This document shows, one piece after another, positions 13,801 through 64,000 of a stretch of 64,000 nucleotides of DNA. The stretch's first letter is position 1; every line of letters begins with the position of its first letter. The notes under the pieces are model-generated. The model searched no databases. It worked only from the letters and a program-made list of their open reading frames with translations, and had not been told where the DNA came from. Source of the stretch: Protoeuglena noctilucae (taxonomy: Eukaryota); NCBI GenBank assembly GCA_958009085.1, contig OY253679.1:1-64000 (forward strand), read 5' to 3'. A program made the position numbers and the translations under genes.

Positions 13801-16059
13801 GCCTTGTCCCAATCGACGGCGTCGTAGGGAGTGGGGAAGAGCTCCTCGCTGCGAGGTAAGGGGAATAGTTGGAGTTGGATAGTACAATAATATGTAGATG
13901 GGATTTGTCCCGATCTATATCATCTAAGGGCACTTTCATGCTGAAAGTATATCTACTCGTTAACGCACTCACCGCAGCGACATGACGAGGGGGGTGATGG
14001 GCCCCGTGCCCCGTGGCTCCCTTGGCGTAGACGTAACACAGTATGCATTGTTATTGCTATCTATTATATAGTTAGTATAACTATCACTCACCGCAGCGAC
14101 ATGACGAGCGGGGTGATGGGCCCCGTGGCTCTCTTTGCATACAAATAGCACATGGGGAGGTAGACCATGCGGCAGTGGCACCAGAAGCGGCCGGGGTGCA
14201 AGTAGCCGATGCCCGTCCACTTGCTGAGGGAGGGGAGGGGGTGTCCAACATGAGTGGGGTGAGTGGAGTGGGGGTGAGTGAGAGATGGTGAGGGAGTAAG
14301 AGAGTGGGGTGGAGGTAGCCGATGCCCGCTTACTTGCTGAGAGAGGGGAGGGGGTGAGAGATGGTGAGGGTGGTGTGCAAGTAACAGATGCTATCTCCTT
14401 TACCATGACCCGCATATCACACCCCCCAACACAACCCCCACCTGTATGGCAGCAGCCACGTATCCACAAACACTCACAACAACCCCCCCCCCCCCCCCCC
14501 CCCCGCCCTTCACCTGTACGGCAGCAGCCACATTTCCGGGGGCAGCGGGTTCTGCCCCTCCCACTCGTAGCACCCCAGCACGGACAGCCAGAACTTGCCC
14601 CACGAAGTGCACGCCACCGCCCCTCCCCTCTCGTGCATCCAGACGCGCGCTTTGGACATGCAGGGTTCGTCCTGCGACACCCCCAGAATCCGAAGCGCGA
14701 CGTAGTTGAGGCAGGTGCCGAACATGGTCGAGTGACCCTCGATGTGCAGGCCGTAGCCGCCGTCGGGGTTCTGGTGATTCAGCACGTAACGAACCATCTC
14801 GTGGCTGGGGGTGGGGGGGGGGGGGGGGGGAAGAGGGGTTTGGTGTTATTATTACTTGTAATGTTTGGTATTATCAGCTATATTGATAGAGTGGCGGGCC
14901 GCAACGTGGCTGGGGACAGGGGGTGCTGAGTGTATGTTATTGTAATTGTCATTATCACCAACGTTTGATCGACTAGCGCATCATTACCAATACTAACCAC
15001 CATGCCCCTCCCACTCATCACCCCCTCACCGCTGCGCCTGCCCCAGCACCTCGTCCATCGTCCCCGTGACATAGCATGCAATGACCATGCCAGGCATGAG
15101 GAACATGGGCCCCCCGTAGTCGCCGGGGAAGTGGCCATCATCCTGCTGGAGAGTGGAATACATGGAGAGACCGGCACGCAGGGAGCGCTCGACCTGAGAG
15201 TTGGAGATGAGGGGGGTGTGGTTGTGAGGGTGTGAGTGGAAGTGTTGGTGCGTGGACAGATGCGCACGCAACGTACGCTGGACCTGCGCTGTCCATGTCC
15301 TTTACACAAAACATCCCCACCTGTCCCCATCCCATCCCCCCTCACCTGCGCTGCCGTGGCTGCCCCCTTGTCCGGCACGTCCGAGGTGTCTCCATTCAAT
15401 TACGACACATCCCAGCATATCCCCCATTTCACTCTAATCCATCAACTCATCCCCCTCACCTGTGCCGCCGTGGCTGCCCCCTTGTCCGGCACGTCCGAGG
15501 TGTCCACGCGCGGGGCCTTCCACCCCCGTGCCTCGGCGCGCCTCCGCATCTGCAGTCGGAGCATCTCGTCCGAAGAGTGCTTCTGGCGATCGCGGTGGGA
15601 GGCGAAGTGGTCGCGGAGCCTGGGGGTGGGTGGGGTGAGGGGTGGGGGGGTGAGGGAGGTGGGTGCGGCGGTCACGGCGGGGGTGAGAGACAGCGCATCA
15701 CCCCCGATGCACCACATGCAAAGTGGAATTGAATGGGCGTGTCTTCGCTCGCATCGCAGAGAGCACATGACATGATAACCACGCTCCGTTGCATTTCACG
15801 CAATACACTGGATCCACATGACCCGCTCAACCCAGCCCCTCTCTCACCTCTCGACCTCCGCGCGCTCCTCCTCCGTCCCCGCGCCCTCCTCGAAGACCCA
15901 GACCTGCCGTCCGACGAAGTTGTTCAGCGTGGTGAGGTGCGCGCTGCCCGCCGCGGACTCCTGGGCGCACTTGAGCGTCCACATCCCCGCCGGGGCCGCG
16001 GCGCGGGACGCGCCGTTCGCCGCAGCGTGGCTGAGCGCTTTGCCTCCGCCGCTTGGCAT
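10866..16059 (-). CDS. CAS1: Cycloartenol synthase (2,3-oxidosqualene cyclase), multi-exon
   Basis: [88 protein letters not shown] (His and Ile typical of cycloartenol rather than lanosterol synthases), [13 protein letters not shown] and [11 protein letters not shown]. Confidence 0.96.
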
Positions 16060-23000: not shown

Positions 23001-26000
23001 CCGGATCCTGCAGCGTCGAGTTTCAGACGCAGAGCCGCAGGATTCTGGCGGGGGGGCAGGGGAGGGTTGACCCCACGAGGGAGCTGCCCTTCTGGTTCCG
23101 GTGAGGCTGTTTCTTGGTTTGAGAAATGGGAATTGAGAAACGATAATATCATGTTTGAGTATTTATAGAATTAGATGGCCATGCCGCGCAGTGCAAGCAT
23201 GCCTCAGAGATGCGGGGGTTTCCAAATGTTGTTAATTGCTATAACTACATGAAATGATAGCATAGCTGGTATTCCAAGTATCGATGTTTCTCCGATTCCC
23301 ACCCCCCAGGGCCTCCCGTGCGGGCGCGGACGTGATAACGTGCTGTCTGGTGCTGGAGCACGAGGACGAGGTGTACACGGGGTGGTCGCGCGGGGGGTTG
23401 GAGGTTCAAACCCTGCGGCCGTCGGGGAAGGGCTTTTTGGAGGACCTGGCCATCCGCAAGGCAGACTACCTGGCAGAGCACCCCGTCAACCGCGAGTACG
23501 CCGTCACTTGTTTATGTCGCATACAGCCCCGGGCGCTGGCCGACATGGACATGGCAGGGCTGCACCGGTGAGCGGTGGTTATCAGTTATTATAGTGTTGT
23601 TATAAATAATACAATGGTGGCACACGTTTCTGTGTTGCATCCAGCCGCGGGCGCTGGCCGACATGGACATGGCCGGGCTGCACCGGTGAGGATGAGAGGA
23701 GTCATAACCTGTATTGGTTAATGTGAAGTGGATGACGGCGCATACAGCCACGGGCGCTGGCCGACATGGACATGGCGGGGCTGCACAGGTGAATTATCTC
23801 CATCAATACTGCAACTAACGCTGCATAGTTATGGCAATAATATATGTACATACTCACCTGATCGTCACTACTAGTAATGCTAGTCCCCACACCCTTTCCC
23901 CTCAGGGCCCTCCGCAAGCTCCGGGACTTCGAGGGCCATCGGTGGAACGACGGGGGCAAATCCAAAAACTCAAATTCGAGAGGGCAAGCGAACGCGGCCG
24001 GCGACGCGATGCGGGGGTTCCTGCAGATCATCCGGGCCGCCAGGGCGGGGAGGCGGTGGAGGGAGCGGGTGCGGAAGCCCATCGTGGTGTACGGCACCTC
24101 CGACGGGCTGCTCGTGGTGACAGACGTATGCTGTTGTTATTGTTATTTTTATAATTAGTAATGTATTATTATTGGTTCTTTTTGATAATGTGCGCGTGAT
24201 GATGCAAGGGCTGTTCGTGGCTAGTGCCCTTCCCAACACGCGCCTGCATCCACATGCCAGCGTTACCGATCATAATACAACCATAACCATTATATATTCA
24301 GCGTTCTTTATTCCTTATTTAACCCCTCCCCTTCTCCCCCAGATGGCCACCCGCCAGCGTAACACACGCCCCCACATCGTGGAGGCCCACGCCTCCCCCG
24401 TGGTCCAGGTCATACCCGTGGACGTCCGATCCTCGATCGTCTCCCTTGATCGCGATAACCATGTCAAGATATGGGGCTTCGTGCCCCCCCAGGCGCTGCC
24501 CATGACCCTCAAGACGAGGGCGCTGCCGGGCATCCTCGCCCCCATGATGCAGTTCCAGTGAGGGGTTATAACGGTTGTGACTATGATATCTTTTCTAGTT
24601 AAATTAATCTGTGATGACTGATACCGACCCCATAATGCAGTAAACGCTTTGTTTCAAATTTATCATAACCTCATTCCTTTATCTACCATCCACTACTGCC
24701 TACTCCCCCCGCAGGGTCCCCCTCCAGGCCATCACCTGCGTCGCGTTTGTATTAAGACACAACGCCCCGCCTGCACAAAGCCGCAAAGTGCAGCGACCGC
24801 AGACGGAGATCAGGGTGAGGGGGTGGTGGGTCGGGGATGATGAATGAGGGGTGCTGTCACTGCGGAACGTGATGTGGGTGCATGCGGGGGTGAAGGTGAG
24901 GGGCGTGTTGGCGGGAATATTTGAGGGGTGCTGTGGGTGTGGAGCGGGGCAGAGTGACGTGGGAAGGGCGTGGGAATGGCGAGGGGTGCGGGGTGCAACC
25001 CCTGCATAACCTCCATTGAATCATTGAAAAGACACACCGCTATGGCTGGTATATAATTATAACAATTACAAGATATCATAACTCACCCTTTTTATCCACC
25101 CCCCGCAGCCCCACCCAGTGTCTGCCGCCCGCCCCCCCCGCGCCTCCGCCCCGGGACTCGCACTGACGAGGAACGACGCTGTCACTAGCAACCCCAGCAC
25201 TGTCAACGCCAGCACTACTACCACTGCCATCGCCACCATCAACTCCAGTGTTAGCGCGGGCGTGGCCGAGGGCGCTCCCACCGACCCCACCGCCCCCCCC
25301 ACCGCTGTGTTACCGTCATCTCGCCCGGTGCTGCAGCGTCGATTGATGGTGATTGAAACGCACACGGGCGCATTGGAGAGGCCTGCGGACAGGGAGTGGG
25401 TGCTGGAGATGTACCTGGGGGGTGGCACGGGGGACGTGTGCCACGTGGAGGTGGCGGGGATCGAGAGCCCCACGCAGGAGGTGAGGAATGGTGTGGATAC
25501 TAGATTTACTATAATTAATGATAAGTAAACATGAGTTGCTTGTATGGAATGGTTGAGACGGGTGGGATGGGTTCATAAGTAAGCAGCATGCCAAGATGTA
25601 CATGTTTATGATTCTTTAAGCTATCTTTATGTAAATCAATAACTATCGCTCACTCCTTCCCAGGAAGTGAACGAGGTCCTCAGCGCCATGCCCCACAACA
25701 CGGGCAGCATGCCCCCCCGCCCCCCCGTCCGCCACAACGACAGCTGCCGCGTTCTGAGGACGCTGATGCTGCACCGGAGCAGGGTGGCGGCGATCGCGGT
25801 GTCCGACGCGCTGATCGCGAGTGCGGACATGAACGGGGCGGTGGTGGTGTGGGACGCACACAGCCGCAGGGCGCTCGCGCAGGTGAGAGTGGGTGTGGGG
25901 AGGGTCATTGATGTTAGTAGCTGTAAGTGATTGTAACGTGGGGTTGATCAATGAACCATTTAATGGGATCCATTCTATGTTCGCGTCTAACTTTTGACAC

Positions 26001-29538: not shown

Positions 29539-31697
29539 ATGGGCGCCCCGTGCCGGTTGCGCTGCGCCGGGGCCATCCGCGCGCGGGGAGGCCGCAACTG
29601 TCCGCGCCTGCATCGTAAGGACCACTTATTGATCCATCAGTGGTCGCGATATTCCCGCGCGACCCCCGCACGCGCTGTTACCCGCGAAACTCCCCCAGCA
29701 GCCCAAGTCCGCGTCCTTTTCGCGGCCGGCGGGACCGGCGGCCACGTCTTTCCCGCAATCGCCGGTACGAGCTTGCATCCGCACAGCTTTCCGTGCCCAT
29801 CCGGGCCCGCGAACCGCAGAATCGACGCCGCGGGGCCTGTCTGCAACGCGATGCATCCCCGCACTTACTCCCCCGCAGTGGCGCAGGCGCTGCAGCGGCT
29901 CGCTCCCGGCGCAGTTCGAGTGGACTTTGTCGGTGGCGATCGCATCGAGAGATCCGCCGTCCCCAATGCGGGCTTCCCGTTCCACCGCGTCCCTGCCCCC
30001 GCCCTGCGCCGTCCCTGGCGTTCACTCTCCAACGCCCTCCTCCCCTTCCGCCTCGCCTGGGCTCTGATAAGGCGAGAAGAATGCATTGAGCATACGATAG
30101 GTTTGCGCAGGAGCGCATGTCTGGGGAGGTGCCTAAGAGCCGCAGAGCAGTGCTATCTATCTGTAACCGGTATCCATTCCATCTCCTTCTTCCCTCAGGT
30201 GCCTAGCCCTGTCTCTTCGCTTGCGCCCCGACGTGGTGGTCGGAACGGGCGGATTTCAGTCCTTTCCTGCTTGTGTAGTGGCCGCATTGTGTGGTGTGCC
30301 CGTCGCCATTATTGAGCCCAACGCCCTGCCCGGCCTGGCCAACCGGGTCCTGTCTCGCTTCGCCAAAGTGGCATTTCTGGCATTTCCGGCGGCCGAGGCG
30401 GGGCTGCATGGGCGGTGTGGGGTACGCGTGACGGGGTGCCCTGTGAGGGAGGAGGTGGCGGCGGTGGGGGTGGGATTGGGGGGGAGGAGTGAGGGGGTGG
30501 GGGGTGGCAGGTGGGGGTTGGGAAGGGGTGGGGGGTGAGGTGGGGTGAGGGTGGCAGGGATGCGGGGTGGTGGGGGAGGGTGGCAAGCCGTCAGTTTTTT
30601 GTTCCTCAGAGTAAGAGTGCATTTCATCCATTTAATTCTATTTCCTCTCCTCTGATCTCCCACAGTCCGCATATACTCGTGCTGGGTGGGTCTCTGGGCG
30701 CCCCACGGCTGACGGAGGCGGCGGCGGGGGCGATGAGGCGACTGCAACGTCGATACCCCGATTTGCGAGCCACGGTACAGACGGGGAGGGGAAGGGGGAG
30801 GGGTGGTTTGGGTGATTTGCAAGCATCAGTGCAGGCGGGGCAGGCGGAGGGGTGGTGCGTGAATGGGGCGGGAGAGGGCACAGGTGAGTGGGAAGGGTAG
30901 TGTTGTTTGGCGTGGGCAAAGAATGGCAGGTAATGATAAGATGCGACGTCGATGGCTTAACAACCCTTGTAACCCCCCTCTTGCGCGTGCAGGGGAGGTG
31001 ATGTTTGTGGAGTTTGTCGATGATGTGGCGGGGGCGCTGCGGAAGGCGAGCCTGGCCATTTGCAGGGCGGGGGCGGTGGCGTGTGCCGAGCTGGCGTGTG
31101 CGGGTGAGAGAGTGGTGGGTGGGGTGAGTGGGTGGGGTGAGTGGGTGGGGGTTCCAAAATGCAACAAGAAAGTGGGCATGTTTTCATCTCTACACTGCAA
31201 TACCTTTGCAGGCTGCCCGTCCATTCTCGTGCCCTCCCCTCACGTCACCGACAACCACCAAGACGCGAACGCGACTGCGATGGCATCGGCAGGGGCAGCG
31301 GTGGTGGTGAACGAGGGGCCTGGGATGGAGGATGCGTTGGTGGAGGTGTGCGGGGAGTTGCTGAGCGATCCTGGTGAGGAAAGCATTGATGAAATGACGT
31401 GTGCGTGGCTGGGTGCGGATGCGGGAGCGGTGTTGTGTGTGCGCAGATCGATGACTCATGCCCAATGACAGTCATGCTATCTTATCAACAGTCACTATAC
31501 TTATCACTCGCCTCTCTCACTCCCCCTCAGCCCGCCTCTCCGCCATGTCGCATCGTGCTCTGGCGGCCGCGCGGCCCAAAGCGGCGCTCGACATCGCGGA
31601 GGCGGTGCTGGAGATGGCGGGGCGGGAGACTGGCAGTCGGGGTAATACTGGTAATATCGGTGATCCTGGTGATTGGAGTGGTGTCGTTACGGCTTGA
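29539..31697 (+). CDS. murG: MurG (lipid I N-acetylglucosaminyltransferase, GT28), intron-containing, with an Arg/Ala-rich N-terminal extension
   Basis: AAGGTGGHVFPAIA, RPDVVVGTGGFQSFP, IEPNALPGLANR, LVLGGSLGA, QTG, EFVDD, CRAGA..AEL..G.PSILVPSPHVTDNHQDANA. Introns restore the frame. Confidence 0.95.
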
Positions 31698-31840
31698 AGC
31701 GCTTGGTATGTATTGCAGGAGATGGCGGGGTGGGAGACTGGCAAGCGTGGTAATGTTGGTGATCCTGGTGACTTGAGTGGGATCATGATGGCTTGGACTT
31801 GGTATGTACTGCTGCTGGAGATGGCAGGGAGGGAGTCTAC
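31608..31840 (+). repeat. ~100-bp degenerate tandem repeat (two and a partial copies) spanning the murG stop codon
   Basis: GGAGATGGCGGGG.GGGAGACTGGCA..GGTGATCCTGGTGA..CTTGGTATGTA recurs at ~31610 and ~31718, with a partial copy at ~31817. Confidence 0.85.
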
Positions 31841-37900: not shown

Positions 37901-40900
37901 AACAACAACAACAATGCAGCCAACGCGCAGAGTGGGGGCAACGCTGCGCAGAGTGGCGGTGGCAATGCGGGTGGCGGTGGGGGTGCCACCGCAAGTGGCA
38001 TCCCCCACCCCCCCAGCGCCCGGGGCGGCAGCGGCCGCTCCGTCGCCGGCGCCTCGGACCAGAGCACGAAAGGCGACCCGGGCCACAGCACGAAGGGCGA
38101 CCGGGTGCCCAGCGCGGCCTCGGGGCGGTCGGTGGGGTCGTCGACCGGGGAGGCATTGCTGGCCTTGGAGGAGATGGGCATCGACCTCGACGACGTGGAC
38201 CCCGCCAAGCTCTTGAAAGTGCAGACTCTGCCGCCCATCTTCCACGTGCGCATCCACCTGGACGCCGAGGAGGACGCGCTGGCCTTCTACCCGGGGCCGC
38301 CCGGTGAGTGGCGGCGGCGATAGTGATGGCAAGTATATAGAGCGACAGTTGTATAGTATTATATGCGTAGTCACTGGTAAGTATAATAACAGTGTCTGGA
38401 TGCGGAAGAGGACGCGCTGGCGGTCTGTCCGGGGCCGCCCGGAGAGTGGGGTTGTGGTGTTATTACATCACTAGTAATGCTAGTAATTATATACTTATAG
38501 AGTGGTCGCATTATATATAATATACAAATACTGGTAAGTATAGAAATGGTGGCGATGCGTTTGGTCTGGGTGCGGAGGAGGACGCCGTCTGTCCGGGCTG
38601 TCGGGTGAGTGGTGATAAGAGCTGGTAGTAATTTGGGTAATAATTTATAGTTATTATAGAAGGTGCAATATGGGGACTATCACGCTGGGTAAGAGTACCA
38701 ATAAGTAATGCTAGACATTATAACAATGGGCTAAGCGAAAGGGGTGGGCAGAGTTTCGCACCACGCTCCCCATTCTCACATTCCCTTGACATAATCTTAT
38801 ACGCCTTATCACTTTCGTTGTAATGTCAATGATTGTCGCCGATATCGTCTCATTATCCCTATACCGATGTCATGAATTTTCTGATATTATGGAATATTAC
38901 GGCAAAATACACAATCCAACCCCCCCCCCCCCATCCCAACCCTCCCCCGCAGAGGTCCTCGAGGTGCTGGAGAACGTGATGCAGGGCTTCCTGGAGGTCA
39001 TGGACAGCGTGGGCCGCCTGCTGGGCTCGCAGGACCTCGCGCATTTCACCAGCGAGTCGCTGGAGTCCCCCGCCGGCGCCGCCCCGGCCACGTTCGTCGA
39101 CCAGATCAACGACGAGGTGCACGAGGACAACGTGCTGGGCGTCAAGGCGCTGCTGCACCAGGCGTTTGAGCGGGCCGAGCGCTTCAAGGCCTCGTTCGAG
39201 CCGCTGCGCGCGCGGCTGATGGGATACCGCGCCGTGACGCAAGCGCGCATGGAGGAGGAAGTCAAGGAGGGGGCGCGCGACCTGCAGCGCTTCGACGACG
39301 ACTGGGCGGAGTACGCGGCGGCGGTCGCGGCGGTCAAGGCCATCACTGACGAGGACCGCCACGGGAACGTCCTCCTGGACCTGCGGCCGATGAAGGAGGC
39401 GCTTCTGCCCTTCCCGGAGCGCTGCGTCGCGGAGATCCAGCGCCTCCTGCCGCGTCTCGCGTTCTCCTTCTACCAGGAGTTTGTCGCGGACGTGCACGCC
39501 GTGCAGCGGCGCCTGGCGCGCGCACCGGCCTCCGTGGAGGATTTCGTGGATTATTTGGAGGTTTTGCAGGACACGGTGGGCCGGCGGGAGTCCTTCGACG
39601 AGCGCAACGCGCTGGTGCGTTCTTACTACGATTTGATCGACAAGTTCGGCATCCGTGTCGAGGCGCGCGAGCGCGCGGCGTTCCAGACGCTCGGCCCCGA
39701 CTTCCAGCAATTTATGGAGACGCTCGAGGCGGCCGAGGCGGCCAAGGACGCGCTCATCGTGCAGTTCACGGGCGACCTCGACGCCCAGGAGACCGAGATG
39801 GTGGCCGAGGCCACGCGTGTGCGCAACGCGGCGCAGGAGGAGGCGGTCCTCGACGCTTCCTCGGACATGGACAAGGCGCTGTCGGTCACCACGCGCCTGG
39901 CGGAGGAGGTGGCGGAGCTGAAGGCCCAGGCGTCGCGCGTGGCGCGCTACCGCCAGCTCTTCCGGCTGCCCGAGCGCCGCTACCCGGAGCTGGAGGAGTC
40001 CGCGACCGAGGTCGAGCTCAAGCACCTCATGTGGCAGTCGCTCCAGGAGTGGGAGGCCGTCACGGCCGAGTGGGAGGCGTCGCCGTTTCATGCGATCGAC
40101 ACTCTGGCGGTCGAGGAGACCCTCGCCCGGTTCGTCAAGACGGTCAACCGCATCGACCGCAACTTGCCGCCCAACAAGGTCGTCGACAGGCTCAAGGACC
40201 GCGTGGGCAGGTGAGGGGGGGATGGGTAATGGGTGGCAGTGTGGGGGCGGGGTGGGGGTGGGGTGGGATTCATGGGTCAGTAGTATGGTTGGGAGGGTAG
40301 CGGTGTGTACGAGGTTGGGGGGATAGGATGAGCAGGTGTGGGGAAGCTAGTGTGGGGGTTAGGGGGACGGTAAGGGGGGTTAGAGGGAAGAGAGGGAGGG
40401 GTACGGCAATGGGGTGGGGGGTGCGTAGCGAGGGGTGTGAGAGTGGGGGGATGGGGCGAGGGGTGAGGGTGGAAGGGGTTTTAAGGGCTGCCTACAAGCA
40501 AGTATTAACGATGAGCATTACTCCGCATCTCTCACCATGCGCGGCCCCACTCTGCGACCCTTTTCCACTGCGCTGTCGATTTGCATCCCTTGTGACCCCA
40601 CCCATCTCCACAAAAGGGACACCCTGTTATTATTCGCAAAATAATATTTGCAAATCTATCCATCCATATGTCCACATCTATAATTTTTGTAATATTACAT
40701 TTGTAATTGTGTTTTTACTTACATGTATCATGGTACAGGTCCTCATACCCCTCCCTTTACTCCTAATATCTATTTCTCTGCATATAATATCTTTATCATA
40801 TCTGCATATATCTATATATTTGTACCTCCATCTGTGCCAAGTTACCAAGTATCTAACCCCTCCCCTCCCCCACCCCACCCCCAGGTACAAGGAGATCGTG

Positions 40901-49900: not shown

Positions 49901-51579
49901 ATATCTTTATTATATAATATATATAATTAATATCGACATCTCTTTTCCCCCTTTCTCCCCCTCCCCCCAGGCCCTCGATGACAAGTTCTACATCACGCGC
50001 GACGGCCTCTACCAGGCACCCCACGACTGCAGCAGGGGCCGGGTGCTTGAGTATCTGAAGAACCTGCCCGCCACGGAGGGCCCCGAGGTGTTCGGGATGC
50101 ACGAGAACGCAGACATCACCTTCCAACTGCAAGAGACGAGGAGGGCCGTGGACGCGATTCTGGCGATGCAGCCGCGGGTGGCGGCGGGGGCGGGGAAGCG
50201 GCCACCGGCCGAGGTGGTGGCGGCGCTGGCGGCGGAGATAGGTGAGTGGGGGATGAGGAGTCCGATAATAGGGGAACGAAGGTGTTGTCAGTGGTAGATG
50301 GGAAAGCGGCCGCTGGCCGAGGTGGTGGCGGCGCTGGCGGCGGAGATCGGTGAGTTGGGGAGTTATATGAAGGGTTTTGGTGATTGGCATGAGATATTAA
50401 TGGTAGATGGGGATGGGTGAGGGGGGTTGTGGTGTGGTGGATGGTGTGAGGTGGTGGCGGCAGAGAAAGGTGAGCAAAAGAGTTATATGAGGAGGTTTAA
50501 TTACTGGGAATTAGATGTGAATGATCGATGGGTGTGGTAGATGGGGTGCAACGAATGGGGCTGACTGCAGATGCCCGTTCTCAACCCCCCTCCCCTTCCC
50601 TCCCCCCCAGAGGCCTCCCTCCCCCCACCCCTCGACCTCTCCCTCGCCCCCTCCAACCCGGAACGCAACCCCTTCGCCCCCATGCCATCCGGCCACGACA
50701 ACTCATTGGGCATCGTGCTGCGGCAGGAGGCCGACCGATTCCAGGCCCTGCTCTCCGCCATGCGCACGTCCCTGCAGGACCTGCAGCGCGCGATCCAGGG
50801 ACTGGTGGTCATGAGCGGCGATTTAGAGGCCATGTTCGGGTCCTTACTCGACAGCCGCGTTCCCGCGTTGTGGGAAGCGAAAGCGTACCCCAGCCTCAAG
50901 CCGCTGGGCGCCTGGACGGCCGACTTCCTCGACCGCATGCGGTTCGTCGCCGATTGGATCACCCGGGGCGAGCCCGCGTCTTTCTGGCTGCCCGGGCTCT
51001 TCTTCCCCCAAGGGTTCATGACGGCGGTATTGCAAAACCACGCGCGCAAGACCCAGGTGCCGGTGGACCGCCTCAACTTCGCCTTCGAGGTGCTGCAGAC
51101 CGACGACGTCGGGGGGCTGGAAAAGGGGCCGACGGACGGGGCGTTCGTGCATGGGCTGTTCTTGGAATCGGCCCGGTGGGACCCGGTGGGAGGGTGCCTG
51201 GCCACGGCGGCGCCACGGGAGATGTACGCGAGGCTCCCAGTCGTGCACCTCGTCCCGCGCGTCGACTACGAGCCGCCGGAGGACGAATACCAGTGCCCGC
51301 TCTACAAGACCAGCCTGCGGTGAGGAGTTGTTATGTGTGGCCAGGCGTTGCGGGCTGCGGGAGGCTGCAGAGGTTGCGGGTTGAGAATGCCGGCACGGGG
51401 AGGGAGAGATGATGAAAGTTGCTGCATCGTCCGTTCCTCACAGGGCCGGCACGCTCAACACGACGGGCCAGAGTACCAACTTTGTGCTGTACATCTCACT
51501 CAAGCTGCCCGAGACGCTCAGCGCGCCGTCGTTCTGGACGCTGCAGGGCGTTGCGGCCCTCTGTGCGCTCGACACGTGA
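34999..51579 (+). CDS. Axonemal inner-arm (single-headed) dynein heavy chain, DNAH6-like
   Basis: P-loops GPAGTGKT, GPTGGGKS, GLSGVGKS and GVGGSGKQ, plus stalk and MTBD. C-terminus CPLYKT..RAGTLNTTGQSTNFV. N-terminal YKPYDLKVV..YTMSAQGVTH..FRLWKGF..WKNYVR resembles the DNAH6 group. The first three exons are tentative. Confidence 0.95.
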
Positions 51580-52031: not shown

Positions 52032-55000
52032 ATGGTGAAGGGATCCTCCTCCGTGCCGCTCGTCAACGGCCTCCCGATGAAGGTGCGGGCGCGCGGTGCG
52101 CGGCTGGACCCCTTGCGCGCACGGGGGTCCGCGGGGGGCGGCCCGCGGGCGGCGCGGACCCCGTGGCGCGCCCCCTGGCGGGCGTCCCCCCTTTGGCCTG
52201 CGGGGCCCGCGCGCGCGTCGCAGCTCCCCGCCGCGCCCTCCGCCCCCGCGACGCGCTTCTCGTTCACATTCTCTCGCACGTGATGCCACGCAGACCGGGG
52301 CCTGGGATGCGGACGAGGACGAGAAGCTCGCATCGTATCAAAAGCTGTACGGCAACAAGTGGTCCGTGGTGGCGCAGTTCATCCCCGGGAGGCAAGTTTT
52401 GGCTGTATAATGCATGTATCTTGCTAGTATCATCGGATGCGCGCGTGGAGAGGCGTTCGCGGGGTCGGGAGCGACGCCAGGGTTTGCTGCATATGGTGCC
52501 CGCAGGACCGGGCAGCAGTGCGCGCAGCGTTGGCGCCACAAGGTGAATCCGAACATCAAGAAGGACAAGTGGACGCCGGAGGAGGACGCCCTGCTGACGC
52601 AGCTGGTGGCGGAGCACGGCAACCGGTGGGCGGAGATTGCGAGGCACATGGACGGCCGCACCGACCAGCAGTGCATGGGGCGGTGGACGAGGCACCTGGA
52701 CCCCAACATATCCCGGTGAGGGACATTTGAGTCGGGAATGAGGAGTAAGTGGGTGGAGGGCCACACATGTTGTGCCGGCATGGGTGCACGGGCGCGCATG
52801 GGGGGCAATGGAACGGGGGCGCATTGAGGGTGCATGACGGGGCATGCGTTCAACACTGCGCCTCTCCTTTACCCACCCCAACCACTCCCCTTTCCACCCC
52901 CTCCCTCCCTTACCCACTAACTCACCCCCCTCCCTCACCCCACCCCCCCGCAGCGAGACCTGGCGCCCCGAGGAGGACGCCCTGCTCATCTCATTACACG
53001 ATCAGCACGGCACCCACTGGTCGCGCATCTCCAAGAGCCTCCAGGGACGCACCGCACAGCAGTGCCGGGCGCGGTTCTTCCAGATCCGGGGTCCCGGGGC
53101 GGCGGGGGAGGTGGACGGGGAGGGGAAAGGGAGAGGCGAGGGGGGCGGCGGGGGTGGGAGGGGGCGGGTTGGCAAGCGGCGCAGCCGGGCGGGGGACGAC
53201 GGGGAGCTCGAGTCGGACCCGGAGTTCGAGGTGAGGGGGGATTTGAAAATGGGAATGCGGAGTGGGAATTTGGATGTGGGATTTGAGTGGAGTGTGTGCG
53301 AGTCGGCTCCCCTCACAGCCACCTCGCTGTCACTCCCTTCCTCACCCCCACCCCCCCTACCCCTGTAGTACCTGGGCAGCTACCGTCCCCACCCATGCGC
53401 TGCCATCTCCCTCACACCATCACCCCCACTTCCCACCCCCACCGCAGCACCTGGGCAGCTACCGCCCCCGCTCCTCCCGCCGCGCCGTGGTGCCCCGCCG
53501 CAGCATCGGCGACGCCGCGCCCTCCCGCCCGGCCCCCGAGGCACTGCCCCCCGCGCCAGAGCCGGTGCCAGAGCCGGCGGTGCCAGAGGCTGCGGTGTCG
53601 GGGCCGGGGCGGGGGTCGGTCGGGGGCAGGAAGGGGCGAGAGGAGGGGGAGGGGGCGAGGGGGAGGGAGGGGCGTGGGGGCAAAGAGAAGGGGGAGGGGG
53701 GGAGGAGGGGGCTGGTGGCAGAGGTGGCGGGTGCGCCGTTGCAGGTGCGTGCGGGTGGGGGTTAAGGGTGTTTGTGGGATATGCGGAAATGGGGTTGTAA
53801 GTGGGTTGTGTGCGTGTGAGGGGCTGGGGGTGTAGATGTTTGGATGGGTTACAACGTGGATGTGTGGACTGGGCCGCGAGTGCGTGCGTGCAGCCGCCCA
53901 CCCTTTCCCGCCCCCCCCGCCCGCAGCCCCTCCACCCCAACCACCCCATCCCCACGCCCGGCCTCCCCGTCAAGCCGCAGCCCCACCGCCCCAGCCGCAC
54001 CACCGCCCCGCCCCACCCCCACCCCCACCGCGCACCCCCCGCCGGCACCCACACGGCCGGCGGGGGTTCAAACCCCGGCGGTGGCCCGAACGGCACCAGC
54101 AATTCGAACATGAACTCGAGTTTGAATGGTCCGCACCCCGGCGGCGCGATGCGGGGCGGTTGGGCGCCCCGTCCCCTCGTGAGGTCGGCGTCGGGGGTCT
54201 CTGCGGGGGAGGGCGCGGGTCTGATCGAGGCGCTGCTGACGTCGCCGGCCAAGGCGGCCGCGCTGCCGCTGGTGAGTGATGGATGGGGGTGTGTCGATGA
54301 TAGATGATGGCTTGGTCTGCTGATTGAGGCCGTGATGGGGGGCGATGGTCGGGGTGGCTGCGCTGCCGCGGGCAAATGGCGTGCATCTTAATATAACTCC
54401 ACTCTGTGATTGCGTGTTTGCAGTTCGCCCCGTCCACCAGCACGGCCGACAACACCCCCACCAAGCTCCTCTCGACCCACAGCCTGTCGCCCTTCCCGGG
54501 AAGGGACAACGCAGGCGAGCAATTAGCATGGGGGGAGATGCGAACCGGCACGCGATGTTCTAGCGTGGTTTGTATAATTGAGAAGCACTCCAGCGTCCAT
54601 GCCTGCTTGAGAGTCCATCCCGCACTCACCCACACCCTGTATCCCCACTCACTCACCCACCACCTTCACCCCCACCCCCACCCACTCAACCCGCCCCCTC
54701 TCTCTCCCGCTCGCAGCCGCCCCCACGGCCCCAGGCGCCCTCCCTCCCCTCCTATTCGGCCTCACCCCCGCCCGCCGCCACCCCAACGCGCGCCACCCCC
54801 CCTCGGCCGCCCCGACCTGGCGGGGCCTTCTCTCCCCCGGAGCAAACGCCTCCGCGTTCGCATCGCCGGCGACGGCAGACCGGCGACTGGCCGTTGACCT
54901 GGCATGCCCCTCGTCCGCCCCCGACTTGCGACCCCCGATGCTGCCGAATGCCACGCCCATCTGCGGGGCGCTGGGGGACGCGCCGGCGCTGGGAGAGGCC

Positions 55001-56559: not shown

Positions 56560-56759
56560 NNNNNNNNNNNNNNNNNNNNNNNNNNNNNNNNNNNNNNNNN
56601 NNNNNNNNNNNNNNNNNNNNNNNNNNNNNNNNNNNNNNNNNNNNNNNNNNNNNNNNNNNNNNNNNNNNNNNNNNNNNNNNNNNNNNNNNNNNNNNNNNNN
56701 NNNNNNNNNNNNNNNNNNNNNNNNNNNNNNNNNNNNNNNNNNNNNNNNNNNNNNNNNNN
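56560..56759. other. Assembly gap (200 N)
   Basis: Run of N. Confidence 1.
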
Positions 56760-57703: not shown

Positions 57704-58388
57704 CGCTGGCGCCGTCTGCGGTGCCACACTTTCTGCTGCCAAGCCCTCGCCACCTCGAATCCCGTGAACAGCGGGCGCGGCCACGCAGGCCGTGAGCGAC
57801 CCGGGCTGAACCAGTCGACGCAGCGAGCGCGAGGCGGATCGCACGCGTGCACAGCGAGGAACGCGTGCAACACCGCGTTTGGATTGATTCCAGTGAGCGC
57901 AGGGTGGTACCGATCGGTGGGACCAAGCGAGCAGGTGCTGTCTCGCAAGCAGACGCTGCACTGGTGCGAGCACGCCGCGACGCCTGCTGTTTTGTTGCCA
58001 GGGAGGCAAATCACAGCGCTCTGGCACACTTTCCCGGATCGGGGAGCGCGGAGAGCCAGCACGGCACGCTGCGATTGGCACTTGCTGGTACCAAGAGTGC
58101 CACGCGCTGGCCGGACGGCTCCAACATCGCGCGCGTCCTTTGCGTTTATCAGGCCAAACCCATGCTGCGCCGGATCTCACGCCAACACGTCGCGAGCGCC
58201 GCTTCAAGCAATGTAGTGAAACTAGTTGTTTAGCACTAGCGCGGCGGGATCGTCAAAGCTGGGCATCCCAGCCCGACCCACGCCTTGCTCTACAGCGTCC
58301 CGCTCGCTCGCTGCCTCCGCGCGCGCTCCCTCGCTCTCTCGCGCTCCCCGTCTCGGCGATGATATGTTGACCGTGATCGTCGCAAGTT

Positions 58389-61300
58389 TCAGTGCAGCTT
58401 GCGCAGCTCCCATCCCCCGGCTCCGTCCGTCAGCCGCAGCTCCGTCTCGTGGAAACGCACCAGGGCTGCGGGGCATGGCGTGACATGGGAGAGCGGCATT
58501 GAGGGAAACTGTGTAGTCGTAAAAATCTTAATACATGGAGCTATAGTGCACTACGTGTGGGACACTAACCGCACCATACCCACATGCACCACACCCCACC
58601 CCCATCTGTGCTCACCCGTCCGCTGCGTGATGGTGACGAGCGTGATGCCCCGATCGGTGGCCAGCTGGTACAGGTGCTCCTCGACATCCACGGAAGTCGC
58701 GTTGGTGCACTCGTCCAATATCGCGAACCGCGGCTTGTGGAAGAACAGCCTCGCCATGCCCAGGCGCTGCTGCTCCCCCAGCGACAGCGTCTCGCCCCAC
58801 TCCACCTCCTCGTCCCAGCTGTACCGCTCCGCCAAATGCCGCAGCCGCACGTCGCCCATCAGCTCCCCCAGCCTCGCGTCCAGTGCGGCGCGTGCCGTGC
58901 GCCTGTCCTGGTTGGGCGCGACCCAGTCCGCGGCCTCGTCGGCGGTCAGCGGATAGACCAGCTGCTCACGCAGGGTGCCTGGGGTGGTGTAGGGCTTCTG
59001 GGGGACGAAGAAGAGCTCGCGGTGCAGGCCGCGGTGGGTCTGGGGCGTTGGAGAGGAGAGAGAGGGGTCATTTGCAATTCTAACTGTCTGAGATGGTGCT
59101 CAAATTAATGGATGCATTAATCAATGACTCGTAAGTCAATCATCAACACCAGTCACCTCTGGCTTGACCAGGTGCCCCGACACGAGCGGCCACAGCCCCG
59201 CCAGCACCCGCACGATGCCCGTCTTGCCCGACCCATTGGGGCCCGTGATCAGCGCCCCCTCGCCCTGCCGCACCGCGAGCGTCAGCTTGCGCGCCAGGAC
59301 ATTGCCGGTCGGGGTAACCACGGTCACGTCGCTGAGGCCGACGGAGGGGCCGGCGGTGGCGGTGGGGGCGGAGATGGTGAGGGCGGTGGCGGAGCGCTGG
59401 GGGCGGGGGAGAGGAAGTGGGTTGGTGGGTTACTGTGGTATTGTATAGTTTACAGATATCTAACGGTATTTATCACGAGAGTGTCACGCTCGCCCACAGC
59501 CACCCGCAGCGCAGCACCCGAGTCATGCTAGATCAGCGAAAATAATCATCAAACACTCAACAATAACAGTAACAATAATGACAATAATAACATAACAGCG
59601 ATCCTCGCCTTCATGGCCGTGGACGCCCTCGCGGCCGACCGGAGCGCGTCCCTCAGCTGCGCCACCCGCGCCACCCCCCCCGACATCTCCACGAGTCGCT
59701 TGTGCAGCGAGAGCACTTCCCCGAAGGCGATGAACGTGTTGGTGACGATGCTGGCCAGATAGCGCATGTTGTGCACCATCTCCGCCTGCACGCGGCTGCT
59801 GCCCCGGTCGCCCTCGTACGCGAGCGCGTAGAGCTGGGGGGGGTGTGGTTGGGGTGAGGGAGGTTAGTTATTGTTATTATATGTGATTACACTTAATGTA
59901 ATCATGTTACGCATTGTTGGCATCGAACGCCAACGAGTAGAGTTAGGGGGAGAGTGGTGAAGAACTCGTCGGCCACACCCACAGTCATTGACTACTACTT
60001 ACTATCAAACACTATCAACAATCTTATAATCACTCACCAGGGTGAGCAGCCAGGTGACGTTGTGGGGCAGCTGCCGGGTGAAGAACTCGTCGGCCACCCC
60101 GTGCGCCCACCGGGTCGTGGCGGTTTGGCTCAAGTGGCGCATGTACCGCGAGAAGTGGTCCTCGATCGCGGAACCCTCGCGGGGGCCACCACCAAAGAAG
60201 GCCACGCTCTCGGCGTTGGTCCTGGGGTGGGAAGGGAAGAGGGGGGTTGTGGAATTAGTTGCTATGATAGCGACTTACCAGCCATTTGAAATTGTTGAGA
60301 GTTCGGTTATCAATAGTCGTATCCGCCCTCCCACTCACCTGAGCCGCGCGTGCATGTTGCGGAACACCCCCTCCAGCGCCGCCTCTTTTGCTGCCATGAG
60401 ACCGAAATCAGGCGTCACGGCTTTGAGTGCGCCCAGGCCCAGCAGCATGTAGAGGTACGCGAGCGAGAGGCCGCGGGTGCCTGCGATGGGGGGGGGGGGA
60501 TAAGGGGATTGGTATTGTTTTTATATATAGTGTTTGTCATGTAGAGGTACGCCGGGAGAGGCCGCGGTAGACGACAACCACGCGACGTCAAACTACCAAC
60601 TACGCATCTGTCTACTGTTCTTATGACATAATATAACATCTAATAATCCACCGACTCACCGGTGAGCATCCACATGCGGGAGGAGAACCACACGATGTCC
60701 ACCACGGGCTTGACCATGGTGGGTATCAAAGAAGCCGCGTCGTTGCAGAGCCTCTCCACATCCCTCACAATGCGCTGGTCGGCGTCGCGCATGCCGGCGA
60801 TGTTGGACGCGAGGTACAGGTTGTTGCCGGAGAAGTACTGGGGGAAGTTAAGAAAGAGATGGTTGGTTGAAAGGGCTGTTCTACTTATTCTCATTATTAG
60901 TTAGTATTATTATTGACACTGTTACAATCCATTATAACTATCAATGCTGTTATTATATACATCTGTAAATTTATAATAGTCCCTCACCCCCTGCGCGAGA
61001 TCCGAGGTGATCCTCCTCCTCCACGACAGCGCGAGGGAGTCGCGGAGATTATCACCTGCCTTTGTTATAATTGCATTTGTAATTCCATAATCATCATATA
61101 TAATGATATATAACCCCTCACCCTCTGCGCCAGATCGGCCGTGATGCGCCTCCTCCACGACAGCGCGAGCGAATCACTGAGGTACTTGAGGCTCTGGGCC
61201 ATGATCGCAGAGAGCATCGACTGAAACACCGACACGCCCATGAGTCGCCGGAACCGGGGCAGGTCCTGCCGCAGCACGTAGTGCACCGTCATGCCGTTCA

Positions 61301-63850
61301 AATTGGCAATGCGGTCCTGCAATGCCGTGCGCAGCACCACCACCACGCCGATCAGGGCCTGGGTGGGGAAGAGGTTGGGGAGATGGTATTATGATCTCGT
61401 AGAGTGATAACTATGATGATCGTAATAGTAATGAATGACAGTGTGGCACCTTTACGTCATCCAACCACCACCCTATCCCACCCCCCACCAGCTCCACCAC
61501 CCCACCGACCACCAGTCAATCATCCCACCCCCACTCACGAGCCTCCGCCACTCCCCCGCCCCCCCACCCCCCACCAGCTCCAAGAAACGCCCCACCGCGC
61601 CCCACGTCGTCAGCCCCGCCCCCACCACCCCCATGCCCGCCTCCCGCGCTCTCTTCGCAAGCTCCGCGTCTTTTTCACTCCCCTCCTTATCCGCAGGAGC
61701 CCTCGCGATCACCTCACCCCCCACCACCCCACCCGCACCCGCACCCGCACCCGCGCCCTCCCCGCTCCCCTTCCCACCCCTCGCCATCCCCTGCAGCACC
61801 TCCAGAGCGTGTTTGGCTCTCTCATTATCCCCGCCCTTCCCACCCCCGCTCTCACCCTTACTCACACCCTCCCCACCCGCACCACCACCGCCCCCCACCA
61901 CCCCACCCGACCTCGCGTCGTGCAACGACCACCCCCCCTCCCCATCCAGATGCAGCACGATATCGTGGAAAGCCATCAGCGCCGGGCGGTGCGAGATCGT
62001 GACGCACGTGCACCCCATCTCCTTGACGGTCTTTGCGAACCGCTCCTCCATGTCGTTAGTCACCCCGGACGTGCACTCGTCCAATATCGCGAACCGCGGC
62101 TTGTGGAAGAACAGCCTCGCCATGCCCAAACGCTGCTGCTCCCCCAGAGACAGCGCCTCGCCCCAATCTACCACGTCCCTCCGCCAATCGCCCCGGTCAA
62201 GCAAAGGTGACAGATCCACTTGGGCGAGCAACGCGCGCACGTCGCTCTCGTCCACCCTGGCGTCCCCGGCTCTCGCGGGGTAAACCAATTGCTCCTCCAA
62301 TGTCCCGATCGATACATAGGGGCGCTGGGGGACATAAAAGATATCGGCGGCAAGCCCGCCGTCCCCACCGGCCCCCGGCTTGCGCACCACTCCCTGCGTC
62401 AGGGGCCACAGTCCGCCCAATACGCGGAAAAGCGACGACTTGCCGGCTCCGTTGGGCCCCGTGACGAGGAGGTGGGTGCCCCTTGGGACGCTCAAGGTGA
62501 GGTCGCGGACGAGGGGGTTGCCGGAGGGGGTGAGGACCATGGCACGGTCGAAGGAGATCTCGTCCTGAGGGTAAGAAGCGAAGGAATGCGCTCATATATA
62601 TAATTGGCGTCGTTTTGGTATCACTAGGTGCGATCTATGTGAGCACCATGGCGCGGTCGAAGGAGATCTCGTCCTGAATGACCAAGGGAGAGTGAGTAGC
62701 TGTAGTGTGGCTGAAATATGATATAAACTATAACTGCAACACGGTTGGTAATCATGCAACCACTCGCCTGCGACGACTCCACCACGCCCGTCGGCGCCTG
62801 CATCAGCGCTGTACATCAATGCCATCTACACGAACACCTTAACAATACTAAACCAATACATAAACAATACATACCATCACTATAACCCACCCACCCCCTC
62901 GCCTGTGATGACTCCACGACGCCCGTCGGCGCCTGCATGAGCGCCCGCATCCGCTCGGCCTCCGTCGCCCCCGATTCTGGCGTTTCAGGGGTCCCCGACC
63001 CCGGCAGGGAGACGTGGGACTGGCCGGCCGAGCCTAACTCGCGGATCACGCGCTCCATCTCGTGCACCCTGCAGGGAAGGGGGGTGGATGGAAATGATGC
63101 AATGTTATCTTTGTGATGCAAGCAGTTTGTCTTATTTTAAGTATTATAATAATAAACATGATTGGCAGATAGAATAGCAACAATAGATGGAATAGCGGAA
63201 CGCGCATGTAGTGGCACCTCACTACCATAACAATAAAAATAACAGGAAATGATTATTACGATACTACTACCAATGCACGAACATCCCTCGCCTGTCCGCG
63301 TGCGCGCTGAGCTTCATGAGCTTCCGTGGCGACGCCGCGAGCGTGCCCATGGACTGGAAGAGCGTGATGATGACGCCCGTGTGGTATCGCATGTTGGAAA
63401 GCATCTCGGCACGGCCACGGGCGGTGGCTTCGGGTCTGGAGAGGAGGGGGGGGGGTTGAAATGAAAGGGCTGGGTTAGATGGGATGGGGTTATTGGTCAG
63501 TGAGACGTACTGGTTCTCACCCTGCCTCCTCGCCTAAAGTGCCCGTAACAGGCAACATTGATAATAACGATAGTGACAACTAAACAATAACAGACTCGCC
63601 TGAGGTGCCCGGAGAAGAAGGGCCCGATGACGAGGATGACGGCCGCGGTGGCCCCCAGGTATTTCAAAAAAAAGTCCTGCACCATCCCGAACCGCCACTG
63701 CGTCCGCTGCACAGCGGCCACCTGGGAGGTCGCGGCATCGAATCCCCGCGACACCGTGCGGCTCTCTTTTCCCATGCCGCCGTACAGGGCCACCGACTCG
63801 GCGTTGGCGCGCAGGCGCGAGTGCAATGCGCGGTACGTGCCCTCCAGGGA
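58389..63850 (-). CDS. Full-size peroxisomal ABC transporter, subfamily D (PXA1/COMATOSE-like); 5' end lies beyond the window
   Basis: [23 protein letters not shown] (EAA motif), NBD1 [37 protein letters not shown], a second TMD ([19 protein letters not shown]) and NBD2 [17 protein letters not shown]. Stop at 58389. Confidence 0.95.
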
Positions 63851-64000
63851 CTGAGGGGGAGAGATGTACAACGACTGAGTTGGGTGAGTGATGTTGCCTG
63901 AGTTGTCATGAGTATCAGGTATAGTATAACTATATGGTTGTTGCAAACAGCCCCACCCCCTCTATCAACCCACTCGCTCTCACCCATGCTTCTACCAACA

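Follow-up and report, generated by a model that had tools for sequence, protein, structure and literature searches.

The growth and movement of introns and their gain of alternative or decoy splice sites are known mostly from single cases. Internal tandem duplication is said to create or extend introns, as in the Rogers model and in Gao & Lynch 2009, and introners, i.e., introns derived from transposons, were reportedly described by Huff et al. 2016. Intron creation and extension by internal tandem duplication is reportedly also treated in Hellsten et al. 2011 (PMC3265369), and a transposon origin of introners is reportedly stated in a further article (PMC9860276). In intron 7 of the human F7 gene, a minisatellite is present whose first 37-bp unit spans the donor of exon 7 (PMC1557585). 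Nested introns removed by intrasplicing are reported for human dystrophin (PMC4829307) and the 4.1 genes, stwintrons are reported for fungi (PMC6616335, PMC8469720), and decoy exons reportedly promote intron retention (PMC7373989). A literature description of exon-edge copies spread through algal introns was not found, which is no proof of its absence.

The window analyzed, the only one examined, is a 64-kb subtelomeric stretch of Protoeuglena noctilucae (OY253679.1, 1-64,000). Several other algae do not fit it: Pelagomonas has 0.45 introns per gene, Chloropicon has TTTAGG-type telomeres and fewer than 1 intron per gene, Pseudoscourfieldia is intron-poor, and chlorarachniophytes have 27-45% GC (PMC9481584, PMC12301720, PMC13213038, PMC12730881). 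In Emiliania, 56-65% of donors are of the GC-AG type (PMC4028052), but no near-identical protein from a named organism came out of the protein searches. The gene of interest lies on the minus strand of the window, as do its exons and introns described below, and encodes a peroxisomal ABC transporter of subfamily D of the full-size type of plants and green algae, where the domain pair occurs twice per gene. Pfam matches were obtained for ABC_membrane_2 (PF06472; 3.1e-20 on 63853-63602) and ABC_tran (PF00005; 1.8e-18 on 62564-61905), and the second half of the gene is seen as the frames 59136-59429 and 58551-59099. Among full-length proteins, ABCD1 of green algae and plants comes closest (61-73% identity). 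Across the outer junction of the focal intron, the spliced frame contains no stops in 343 aa and is collinear with green-algal ABCD1; compared with one such protein (P0125), it shows no gap at the junction at 57% identity. The focal intron measures 338 nt; the introns of this organism are mostly 117-220 nt long.

In the direction of transcription, the focal region begins with the upstream exon (62903..63068), placed by the RNA contig joints 63067/63291 and 62563/62902, whose last 42 nt (62944-62903; the end of exon A) are the template or partner of the first intronic copy, echo A'. The outer intron (62565..62902) is of the GC-AG type, starts with GCGAGG, ends with CTCAG, and is removed in the mature RNA. 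It opens with spacer X (62810..62902; 93 nt including the outer donor), which is G-rich throughout (GC skew +0.90/+0.65), has the composition of the 5' half of an intron, and harbors an 11/22-nt tandem repeat at 62826-62885 (TRF periods 11 and 22). Echo A' (62768..62809) is a 42-nt copy of the upstream exon end with four differences, all synonymous and at third positions, and an AG stands immediately 5' of it. Next comes the inner pseudo-intron I (62674..62767; 94 nt) with the donor GCGAGT, the branch-like motif CTACTCAC, and the acceptor TTCAG; these three elements are intact and fit the gene consensus G[T/C]GAG[T/G]. Its 5' half is G-rich and its 3' half C-rich (skew +0.26/-0.55), as in all 10 real introns of the gene. 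Echo B' (62639..62673) is a 35-nt copy of the start of the downstream exon with two differences, again synonymous and at third positions; it is followed directly by an in-frame TAG and by no donor. Spacer Y (62565..62638; 74 nt including the outer acceptor) is C-rich throughout (skew -0.25/-0.38), with the composition of the 3' half of an intron. The downstream exon, in the part covered by RNA contigs (62099..62564; contig pieces 62099-62563), carries the start of nucleotide-binding domain 1 including Walker A, and its first 35 nt (62564-62530; the start of exon B) are the partner of echo B'.

Alignment delimits two direct repeats. On the donor side, 62757-62809 matches 62892-62944 over 53 nt (89%), comprising the last 42 nt of exon A, GCGAG, and a few intron bases; on the acceptor side, 62530-62568 matches 62639-62677 over 39 nt (95%), comprising TCAG and the first 35 nt of exon B. 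When shuffled intron sequence serves as the reference, z reaches 25.7 for one echo and 24.4 for the other, which bears out the sequence-only reading that an exon-intron-exon junction is nested in its own intron of the ABCD gene. The GC donors that it named are also borne out: the outer one at 62902 is used in RNA contigs with the acceptor 62566-62565, and the inner intron starts with GCGAGT. Its span for echo B', 62673-62640, is one base short, since the homology reaches 62639 (35 nt instead of 34). All six exonic differences (A/A' and B/B' together) are at third codon positions and none changes an amino acid, as had been stated, and the lack of likeness between the inner and outer intron ends was found again: beyond the splice consensus, X, I, and Y share no similarity, BLAST gives no match between them, and the ungapped identity of X to I is 37% including the shared donor.

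The sequence-only reading had called for RNA evidence on the outer, inner, and mixed splice pairs. The outer pair 62902-62565 was seen as the RNA joint 62563->62902 (338 skipped, 4 ambiguous letters) in one contig from each of the metatranscriptome runs X9 and X10 of the same study. As the contigs of mature RNA use the outer pair only, the inner unit is intronic. Inner or mixed junctions are absent from the X9 and X10 RNA contigs; these are assembled contigs, which drop rare forms, so their silence weighs neither way. The outermost site is the one used in both introns (three echo pairs) covered by RNA contigs. A further joint in X10, 61024->61872, was rejected as foreign or spurious, since one of its sides comprises only 21 letters and its ends are not those of a splice junction. 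Strictly recursive splicing, also proposed earlier, does not fit the sequence: CGCTGA, and not directly GT or GC, follows the AG that precedes A', so that the start of A' does not restore a 5' splice site, and, as 41 nt follow the AG, a junction between A and A' would be out of frame. Judging by its signals, the inner intron could be removed as a nested intron. No Rfam family was found in the intron (one match below threshold, with 19.6 bits where the gathering score is 100, lies on the other strand, in the exon). Among relatives from JGI metagenomes (8 loci, 29-68% identity), the two examined (L001 and L004) have no intron at the focal site and are therefore uninformative on ancestry.

The focal unit turned out to be one of about 19 comparable echoes in the window, a recurrence absent from the earlier note. 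Within the ABCD gene, echoes with z>4 occur in 4 of the 10 RNA-supported introns, in three of which both sides are present in the order A' then B'. The intron 60838..61121 (284 nt; RNA joint 60837->61122) holds a donor-side echo at 61047-60976 of the exon end 61181-61110 (z=37.2, 82% identity, three amino-acid changes). Two further RNA-supported introns carry decayed A'-then-B' relics. In 59834..60037 (204 nt; z=12.8 and 9.8), 24 nt of the upstream exon are followed by 13 nt, a decayed acceptor (TAA for CAG), and about 27 nt of the downstream exon; in 60481..60659 (179 nt; RNA joint with a 1-nt ambiguity; z=4.8 and 13.8), 20 nt of the upstream exon are separated by 2 nt from 31 nt of the downstream exon.

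For the window as a whole, with the coding frames outside the ABCD gene picked by GC3 and not by RNA, 24 filtered direct segments (about 19 pairs) were obtained at offsets 40-400, all of them within 57-139, against one at the control offsets 3040-3400; inverted local echoes number zero in the window. Polymerase-theta-type snap-back copying was rejected as the sole mechanism, as it predicts inverted copies and none was seen, although selection against splice-site hairpins could mask them. The similarity of spacers is kept in 6 of the 19 pairs in the direction expected of tandem duplication (z 2.7-6.6), compared with one pair in the opposite direction. The exon-like islands are more alike than the spacers; in the pair 15337/15451, for instance, the island is 96% identical and the spacer 68%. 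Arrays of whole units occur at 31649-31835 (period 99, 79% matches) and 50192-50531. In several other pairs, the homology runs 8-12 nt past the donor (10-12 of 12 identical) and then stops abruptly. None of the roughly 19 echo pairs is identical. The older echoes have stop codons and lost splice dinucleotides, e.g., GT turned into GA at 38396-38449 and AG lost at 11262-11291 and 12497-12571. At 23503-23793, a 41-nt mini-exon is present in three copies, each with an acceptor and a donor; two synonymous sites are all that distinguishes them, and the first copy is preceded in frame by a 24-nt GT..AG remnant.

On balance, the inner unit is probably a non-coding by-product of two short tandem duplications, each across one end of an ancestral 94-nt intron. 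One of them, about 135 nt long, would have comprised the last 42 nt of the exon and almost the whole intron; the other, about 109 nt long, the last 74 nt of the intron and the first 35 nt of the next exon. The A'-then-B' order requires two such separate junction-spanning events. Since each included a full splice site, the donor and the acceptor lying farthest out would take over with the mRNA unchanged, and the old junction would then be stranded within a 338-nt intron; duplications of this kind would be tolerated because the outermost sites remain in use. The same process may have been active on many introns of the region, which suggests that introns here grow via small local duplications. 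Afterwards, the AT-rich spacers would diverge fast, partly via slippage, and the exon-like islands would stay close to the selected exon through occasional gene conversion until their splice sites and frames decay. Conversion from the real exon is perhaps at work, this idea being drawn solely from the unequal decay of islands and spacers. In the focal pair, no likeness to the inner intron is left in the spacers (z +0.3/+1.5 and -1.1/+0.1; no alignment), so that its tandem origin is argued by analogy and by the arithmetic of lengths (135+94+109=338); for this pair, both the tandem origin and the absence of function are what we infer. The earlier note had offered two origins, an original junction displaced from both sides or a whole allelic junction inserted into the intron. 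Given this length sum and the tandem-direction spacer similarity in 6 of 19 pairs, the former fits better, and the latter is kept as a rival.

The possibility that two haplotypes were merged into a nested structure during assembly, named in the sequence-only reading as its refutation, can practically be discounted: short-read DNA contigs of two sources, a marine metagenome (X5) and another sample of the organism (X4), span 62099-64000 with no differences and no gaps, the 80-aa frame through exon A and X is unchanged on 17 contigs, and nothing was found that favors an artifact. As independent DNA contigs carry the whole structure unchanged, it is not a product of assembly. It is very improbable that A' and B' are former micro-exons (41 and ~35 nt) between the introns X, I, and Y, possibly redundant and mutually exclusive, whose copies later fused to the neighboring exons and left the originals stranded. 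The exact bounding of A' by AG and a donor, the length of X (94 nt counting that AG, the same as I), and the mini-exon copies with their own sites at 23503-23793 agree with such a history, but B' is followed by no donor, X lacks the C-rich 3' half seen in 10 of 10 real introns, several precise events per intron would be required, and the relatives lend no support. Mutually exclusive tandem exons are not what is found here either: the real A and B form the terminal parts of larger exons (62903-63068; 62564 downwards), and no intron sets them off on their inner sides. A functional inner junction, either removed first to shorten the intron (nested splicing or intrasplicing) or offering decoy sites that send some transcripts to premature stops and thereby adjust expression, is quite unlikely. 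Its intact, consensus-matching signals, the exon-like flanks kept at 90-95% identity, and the in-frame stops produced by both mixed pairings (TGA at the end of X, TAG just after B') would suit it. At the same time, the RNA contigs, for which rare forms are invisible, contain no inner or mixed junction, the pyrimidine tract is weaker at the inner acceptor than at the 10 real ones, splicing signals need no conservation at the codon level, and folding shows no special RNA structure pairing the outer sites (z=+0.39). Moreover, splice sites and frames are gone from the older echoes of the gene and the window, so that units of this kind are not kept in the long term.

The excess of synonymous differences is explained only partly. 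Over 18 pairs, 41 of 64 differences are at third positions (6 of 6 in the focal pair), where neutral intronic decay predicts about 46% (p=0.003 against 0.462; p=0.049 against a laxer null of 0.53), and C/G transversions make up 15 of the 41 third-position differences but one of the 23 first- and second-position ones (Fisher p=0.003). Such a pattern resembles that of sequences diverging under coding constraint and is not produced by simple gene conversion. An inserted allelic or paralogous junction would explain silent-only differences: A', I, and B' may be a fragment of a diverged functional homologue (an allele, lineage, or paralogue) that entered an intron made of X and Y by template switching or fragment capture in repair. 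We regard such an insertion as unlikely. It accords with all six focal differences being synonymous, three of them being C/G third-position changes typical of long codon-constrained divergence; with the roughly uniform third-position divergence of the pairs without amino-acid change (15 differences in 8 pairs); with the unrelatedness of I to X and Y; with X resembling a 5' half only and Y a 3' half only, I having the full polarity; and with a fragment of about 170 nt. One X4 DNA contig departs from the window sequence within exon A (at 62942), and this exon may therefore exist in a variant copy as well. On the other hand, a protein search with the exon A and X frame for variant alleles or paralogues returned only itself, giving no donor copy, and the contigs of the metagenome and the second sample do not differ from the window. 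The abrupt ends of homology past the donor in several other pairs resemble duplication breakpoints, the spacer similarity in 6 of 19 pairs is of the tandem type, and all offsets are at most 139 nt, a limit not expected of random insertion.

A broader conclusion than that of two local tandem duplications, which we put forward as speculative and rather improbable, would be that this alga actively copies exon-intron junctions into the adjoining intron genome-wide, in direct orientation only and over 57-139 nt (about one nucleosome length), thereby lengthening introns stepwise and making spliceable pseudo-junctions. The islands would then be under coding-like constraint via frequent gene conversion in a very large population or owing to an origin from diverged homologues. 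If this were true, introns would constitute a readable record of past alleles and a source of ready-made nested introns and decoy sites affecting splicing. As it stands, the 64-kb stretch provides about 19 examples of one process at various stages of decay, including three introns with a copy of their own junction. If genome-wide, they would form a natural series for measuring how often and at which breakpoints junction-spanning duplications arise, which of several identical splice sites is chosen, and how much gene conversion takes place between exons and their intronic copies. For annotation, gene finders confronted with duplicated GC-AG and GT-AG sites will often choose the wrong copy.

Among the known systems, introners are reportedly also a process shaping many introns in marine algae with insertions at nucleosome-like spacing. 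Unlike introners, the echoes lack terminal inverted repeats, what is repeated is the edge of the local exon, and no multi-copy family was found in the 64 kb: X, I, Y, and the spacer 61048-61109 have no significant second or dispersed copy within the window. Decoy exons resemble the echoes in being exon-like intronic pieces with intact splice sites; they can reportedly engage the real ones and still be left out of the mRNA. Known decoys are, however, not copies of the flanking exons. As in nested introns and stwintrons, a complete predicted intron (62767-62674, with its own donor, CTACTCAC, and acceptor) lies wholly inside another, and two-step removal would leave the mRNA the same. The inner intron of a stwintron breaks up an outer splice signal and must go first; here the outer GCGAGG and CTCAG are uninterrupted and used, 135 and 109 nt away. 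Unlike both, the inner intron here is flanked by copies of real exons, and it is predicted from its sequence signals.

Closer parallels are offered by tandem duplication. In the Rogers model, as it is reportedly formulated, a short duplication including splice signals also alters intron structure and leaves the mRNA intact; there a new intron arises from a duplicated exon with the inner order B' then A', whereas here it is an existing intron that gains length, and all three introns holding both sides show A' then B'. The F7 minisatellite matches the present introns in that an exon end and its donor recur within the intron, the pseudo-donors being intact and the donor farthest upstream being the one used (here 62902 and 61121). 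Its units are 37 bp long, head to tail, and near-identical; those of P. noctilucae span 57-139 nt, mostly occur as two copies, and usually have diverged spacers. Whole-unit similarity of the F7 type is present in the arrays 31649-31835 and 50300-50531, weak in 6 of 19 pairs, and absent in the focal pair. Unlike F7, the alga also has acceptor-side echoes, and both sides can share one intron.

The 338-nt GC-AG intron 62902-62565 of the ABCD transporter gene (minus strand) contains copies, here called echoes, of the exon edges on both of its sides. The upstream exon (A) ends at 62903 (...TCATCACAG) and is directly followed by the outer donor GCGAGG (62902) and a 93-nt G/T-rich spacer (X), where an 11/22-nt tandem repeat points to later slippage. 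Further downstream lie echo A' (62809-62768, 42 nt), which repeats the exon end and has GCGAGT directly after it; stretch I (62767-62674, 94 nt), holding CTACTCAC and having TTCAG at its 3' end; echo B' (62673-62639, 35 nt), a copy of the start of the next exon; and a 74-nt spacer (Y) with CTCAG at its end (62565), adjoining the downstream exon (B), which starts at 62564 with GACGAG. A repeat finder returned the two repeats as 53 nt at 89% and 39 nt at 95%, and the echoes stand out against the shuffled intron with z=25.7 and 24.4. All six exonic differences are at third codon positions, and all are silent. Hence the nested layout and the silent differences described in the sequence-only reading were correct on re-reading; its account of the elements holds as well, save that B' is 35 nt and not 34 nt long.

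Contigs of four public runs were placed on 58000-64000. The merging of two haplotypes in assembly, the case that would have overturned the sequence-only reading, is excluded: one marine-metagenome contig and one contig from a second sample of the organism span 62099-64000 with no differences and no gaps, and the 80-residue frame obtained by reading exon A through into X is unchanged on 17 contigs. The sequence of the window is also present in marine metagenomes. A run of 200 N at 56560-56759 reflects an assembly gap or withheld sequence.

One contig in each of two metatranscriptome runs (two samples of one study) connects 62563 directly with 62902 and leaves out 338 bases; four letters at the joint are ambiguous. 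This joint corresponds to the GC..AG intron 62902-62565, so splicing uses the outer donor with the outer acceptor and takes the inner unit out. Contigs are blind to rare RNA forms, and the absence of the inner junction among them therefore carries no weight. The same RNA contigs revealed nine further introns of the gene, whose exons encode ABC_membrane_2 and ABC_tran domains, the second half of the gene being further downstream; its best full-length relatives are green-algal and plant ABCD1 proteins (61-73% identity). The RNA-supported exons, when joined, give a frame with no stops in 343 residues, which aligns with the green-algal ABCD1 P0125 at 57% identity and without gaps at the ...ESSQ/DEISF... 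junction; thus, the protein is made from one A and one B. The exon structure was read outside 61358-62099, as RNA and DNA contigs break in the linker between the transporter halves (61417-61900, minus strand), a low-complexity Gly/Pro/Trp-rich segment with CCACCC-type repeats on the plus strand.

In 4 of the 10 RNA-supported introns of the gene (58466-63599, minus strand), the donor is of the GC type and reads GCGAG. All ten are G-rich in the 5' half (GC skew +0.14 to +0.51) and C-rich in the 3' half (-0.24 to -0.73); the same polarity is found in I, while X is G-rich and Y is C-rich over their whole length. One DNA contig of the second sample matches from 62942 (inside exon A) upward and then passes into unlike sequence with a GCGAGGGGGTGG-like donor; the local extra depth is ~14, compared with ~112 for the main contig. 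This diverging contig may stem from a variant allele of the exon or from a paralogue.

Judged by sequence, the layout allows nested splicing: were the inner intron to come out before the outer one, the mature transcript would be unchanged. If X alone were removed, A would be joined to the 41-nt A', with a frameshift as the result; splicing from the outer donor to the inner acceptor would lead into a TAG immediately behind B', and splicing from the inner donor to the outer acceptor would keep X with its in-frame TGA. Since every other pairing breaks the frame or adds a stop, the inner sites would be neutral or costly unless paired strictly with each other; in agreement with this, older echoes have lost splice dinucleotides. 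The sequence-only reading took the layout to allow recursive splicing as well, but in its strict form this is unsupported because no regenerated 5' splice site is found in the sequence at A'. The focal intron displayed neither a match to an Rfam family nor an unusual RNA fold.

The focal intron is not the only one with echoes. In a test of all ten RNA-supported introns, each against the exons on its two sides, four had copies at z>4: the 338-nt intron on both sides, a 284-nt intron on the donor side (z=37), and introns of 204 nt (z=12.8 and 9.8) and 179 nt (z=4.8 and 13.8) on both sides. In the latter two, the relics follow in the order A' then B', only 13 and 2 nt apart, respectively; their splice sites are lost, and amino-acid changes or an indel are present. 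The six echo-free introns measure 117-223 nt.

A scan of the window (24-nt sliding comparison, at least 21 matches, complexity filter, offsets 40-400 nt) returned 24 direct segments, representing ~19 pairs or about one echo per 3 kb, vs. one at control offsets of 3040-3400; no inverted pairs were found under the same criteria. All direct pairs have offsets of 57-139 nt, and nearly all comprise an exon edge with its splice site. The donor-side pairs take in 4-14 intron bases, mostly with a G run at the end, and the acceptor-side pairs take in the C-rich tract and AG. Both kinds, at the same offsets, occur in introns of other genes, modeled by GC3 and splice motifs only (8851-9060, 11151-11291, 11585-11702, 12362-12571, 13966-14127, 14193-14356, 14435-14537, 15337-15504, 21390-21478, 22016-22187, 31606-31838, 38258-38449, 50192-50531 and 53365-53473). 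The window starts with (CCCTAA)n telomere repeats (1-250), degenerating inward, and hence is a chromosome end, covering the first 64 kb; the echo density may be a subtelomeric feature. Separately, a 41-nt candidate mini-exon is present in three copies at 23503-23793 (plus strand; spacing 118 and 103 nt), each flanked by a CAG acceptor and a GTGA donor, the sole differences being two synonymous sites with three states each (CCC/CCG/CCA; GCA/GCC/GCG). Between the upstream exon and the first copy, a 24-nt GT..AG remnant continues the frame and looks like an intron that has been almost deleted.

As to the origin of the echoes, similarity of whole units, spacer included, is retained in the array 31649-31835 (period 99, 79% matches) and between units 2 and 3 at 50300-50531. 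The spacer of each pair was also compared with the stretch predicted as its twin by tandem duplication: residual similarity was found in the predicted direction in 6 of 19 pairs (z 2.7-6.6; 65-77% identity, 26-59 columns) and in the opposite direction in one; tandem duplication of a junction-spanning unit thus accounts for at least one in three echoes. The length of the focal intron fits two such events, each across a splice junction, around a 94-nt intron (135 (42+93) + 94 + 109 (74+35) = 338). Sequence comparisons revealed no retained similarity of X or Y to I, in line with the earlier remark that inner and outer intron ends are unlike, so for the focal pair we infer a tandem origin by analogy.

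Exon-like islands are better conserved than spacers wherever both are measurable, e.g., 96% vs. 68% at 15337/15451. Over 18 pairs and 227 codons (frames from RNA in the ABCD gene, from GC3 elsewhere), codon positions 1, 2 and 3 differ 12, 11 and 41 times, with 35 synonymous and 21 non-synonymous codon changes. If the echo decayed freely and the real exon alone were constrained, ~46% of the differences would be expected at position 3; the observed 41/64 departs from this null (p=0.003) and from a laxer one of 0.53 (p=0.049). C/G transversions make up 15 of the 41 position-3 differences vs. 1 of 23 elsewhere (p=0.003). Eight pairs, the two focal ones included, differ synonymously only (15 differences in all); the remaining pairs look neutral and contain stops.

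This excess looks like divergence under coding constraint, and some echoes could have been copied from a diverged functional homologue, akin to the "allelic junction" of the sequence-only reading; however, searching with the frame of exon A and X did not find such a donor copy, and the environmental contigs do not differ from the window. A force of some kind must be holding the islands alike, the simplest candidate being gene conversion from the selected exon, which would make the homology coincide with the constrained part of the real copy. As an alternative source of the synonymous excess, conversion from echo to exon could subject the echoes to selection that is weak and indirect, given a very large population.

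The main interest is in the general process rather than in a single nested junction. A published description of such an echo pattern was not found in the part of the literature covered. The closest known case is the minisatellite of human F7 intron 7 (PMC1557585): its first unit extends across the donor, and of several identical donors splicing uses the one lying furthest upstream. Internal duplications creating or altering introns, nested introns, stwintrons and decoy exons are each related to the echoes in one respect. The present case is distinct by its combination of 57-139 nt units, echoes on both donor and acceptor sides and persisting exon-like islands, as well as by three introns of a single gene that each enclose a complete junction copy and by the frequency of echoes along the window.
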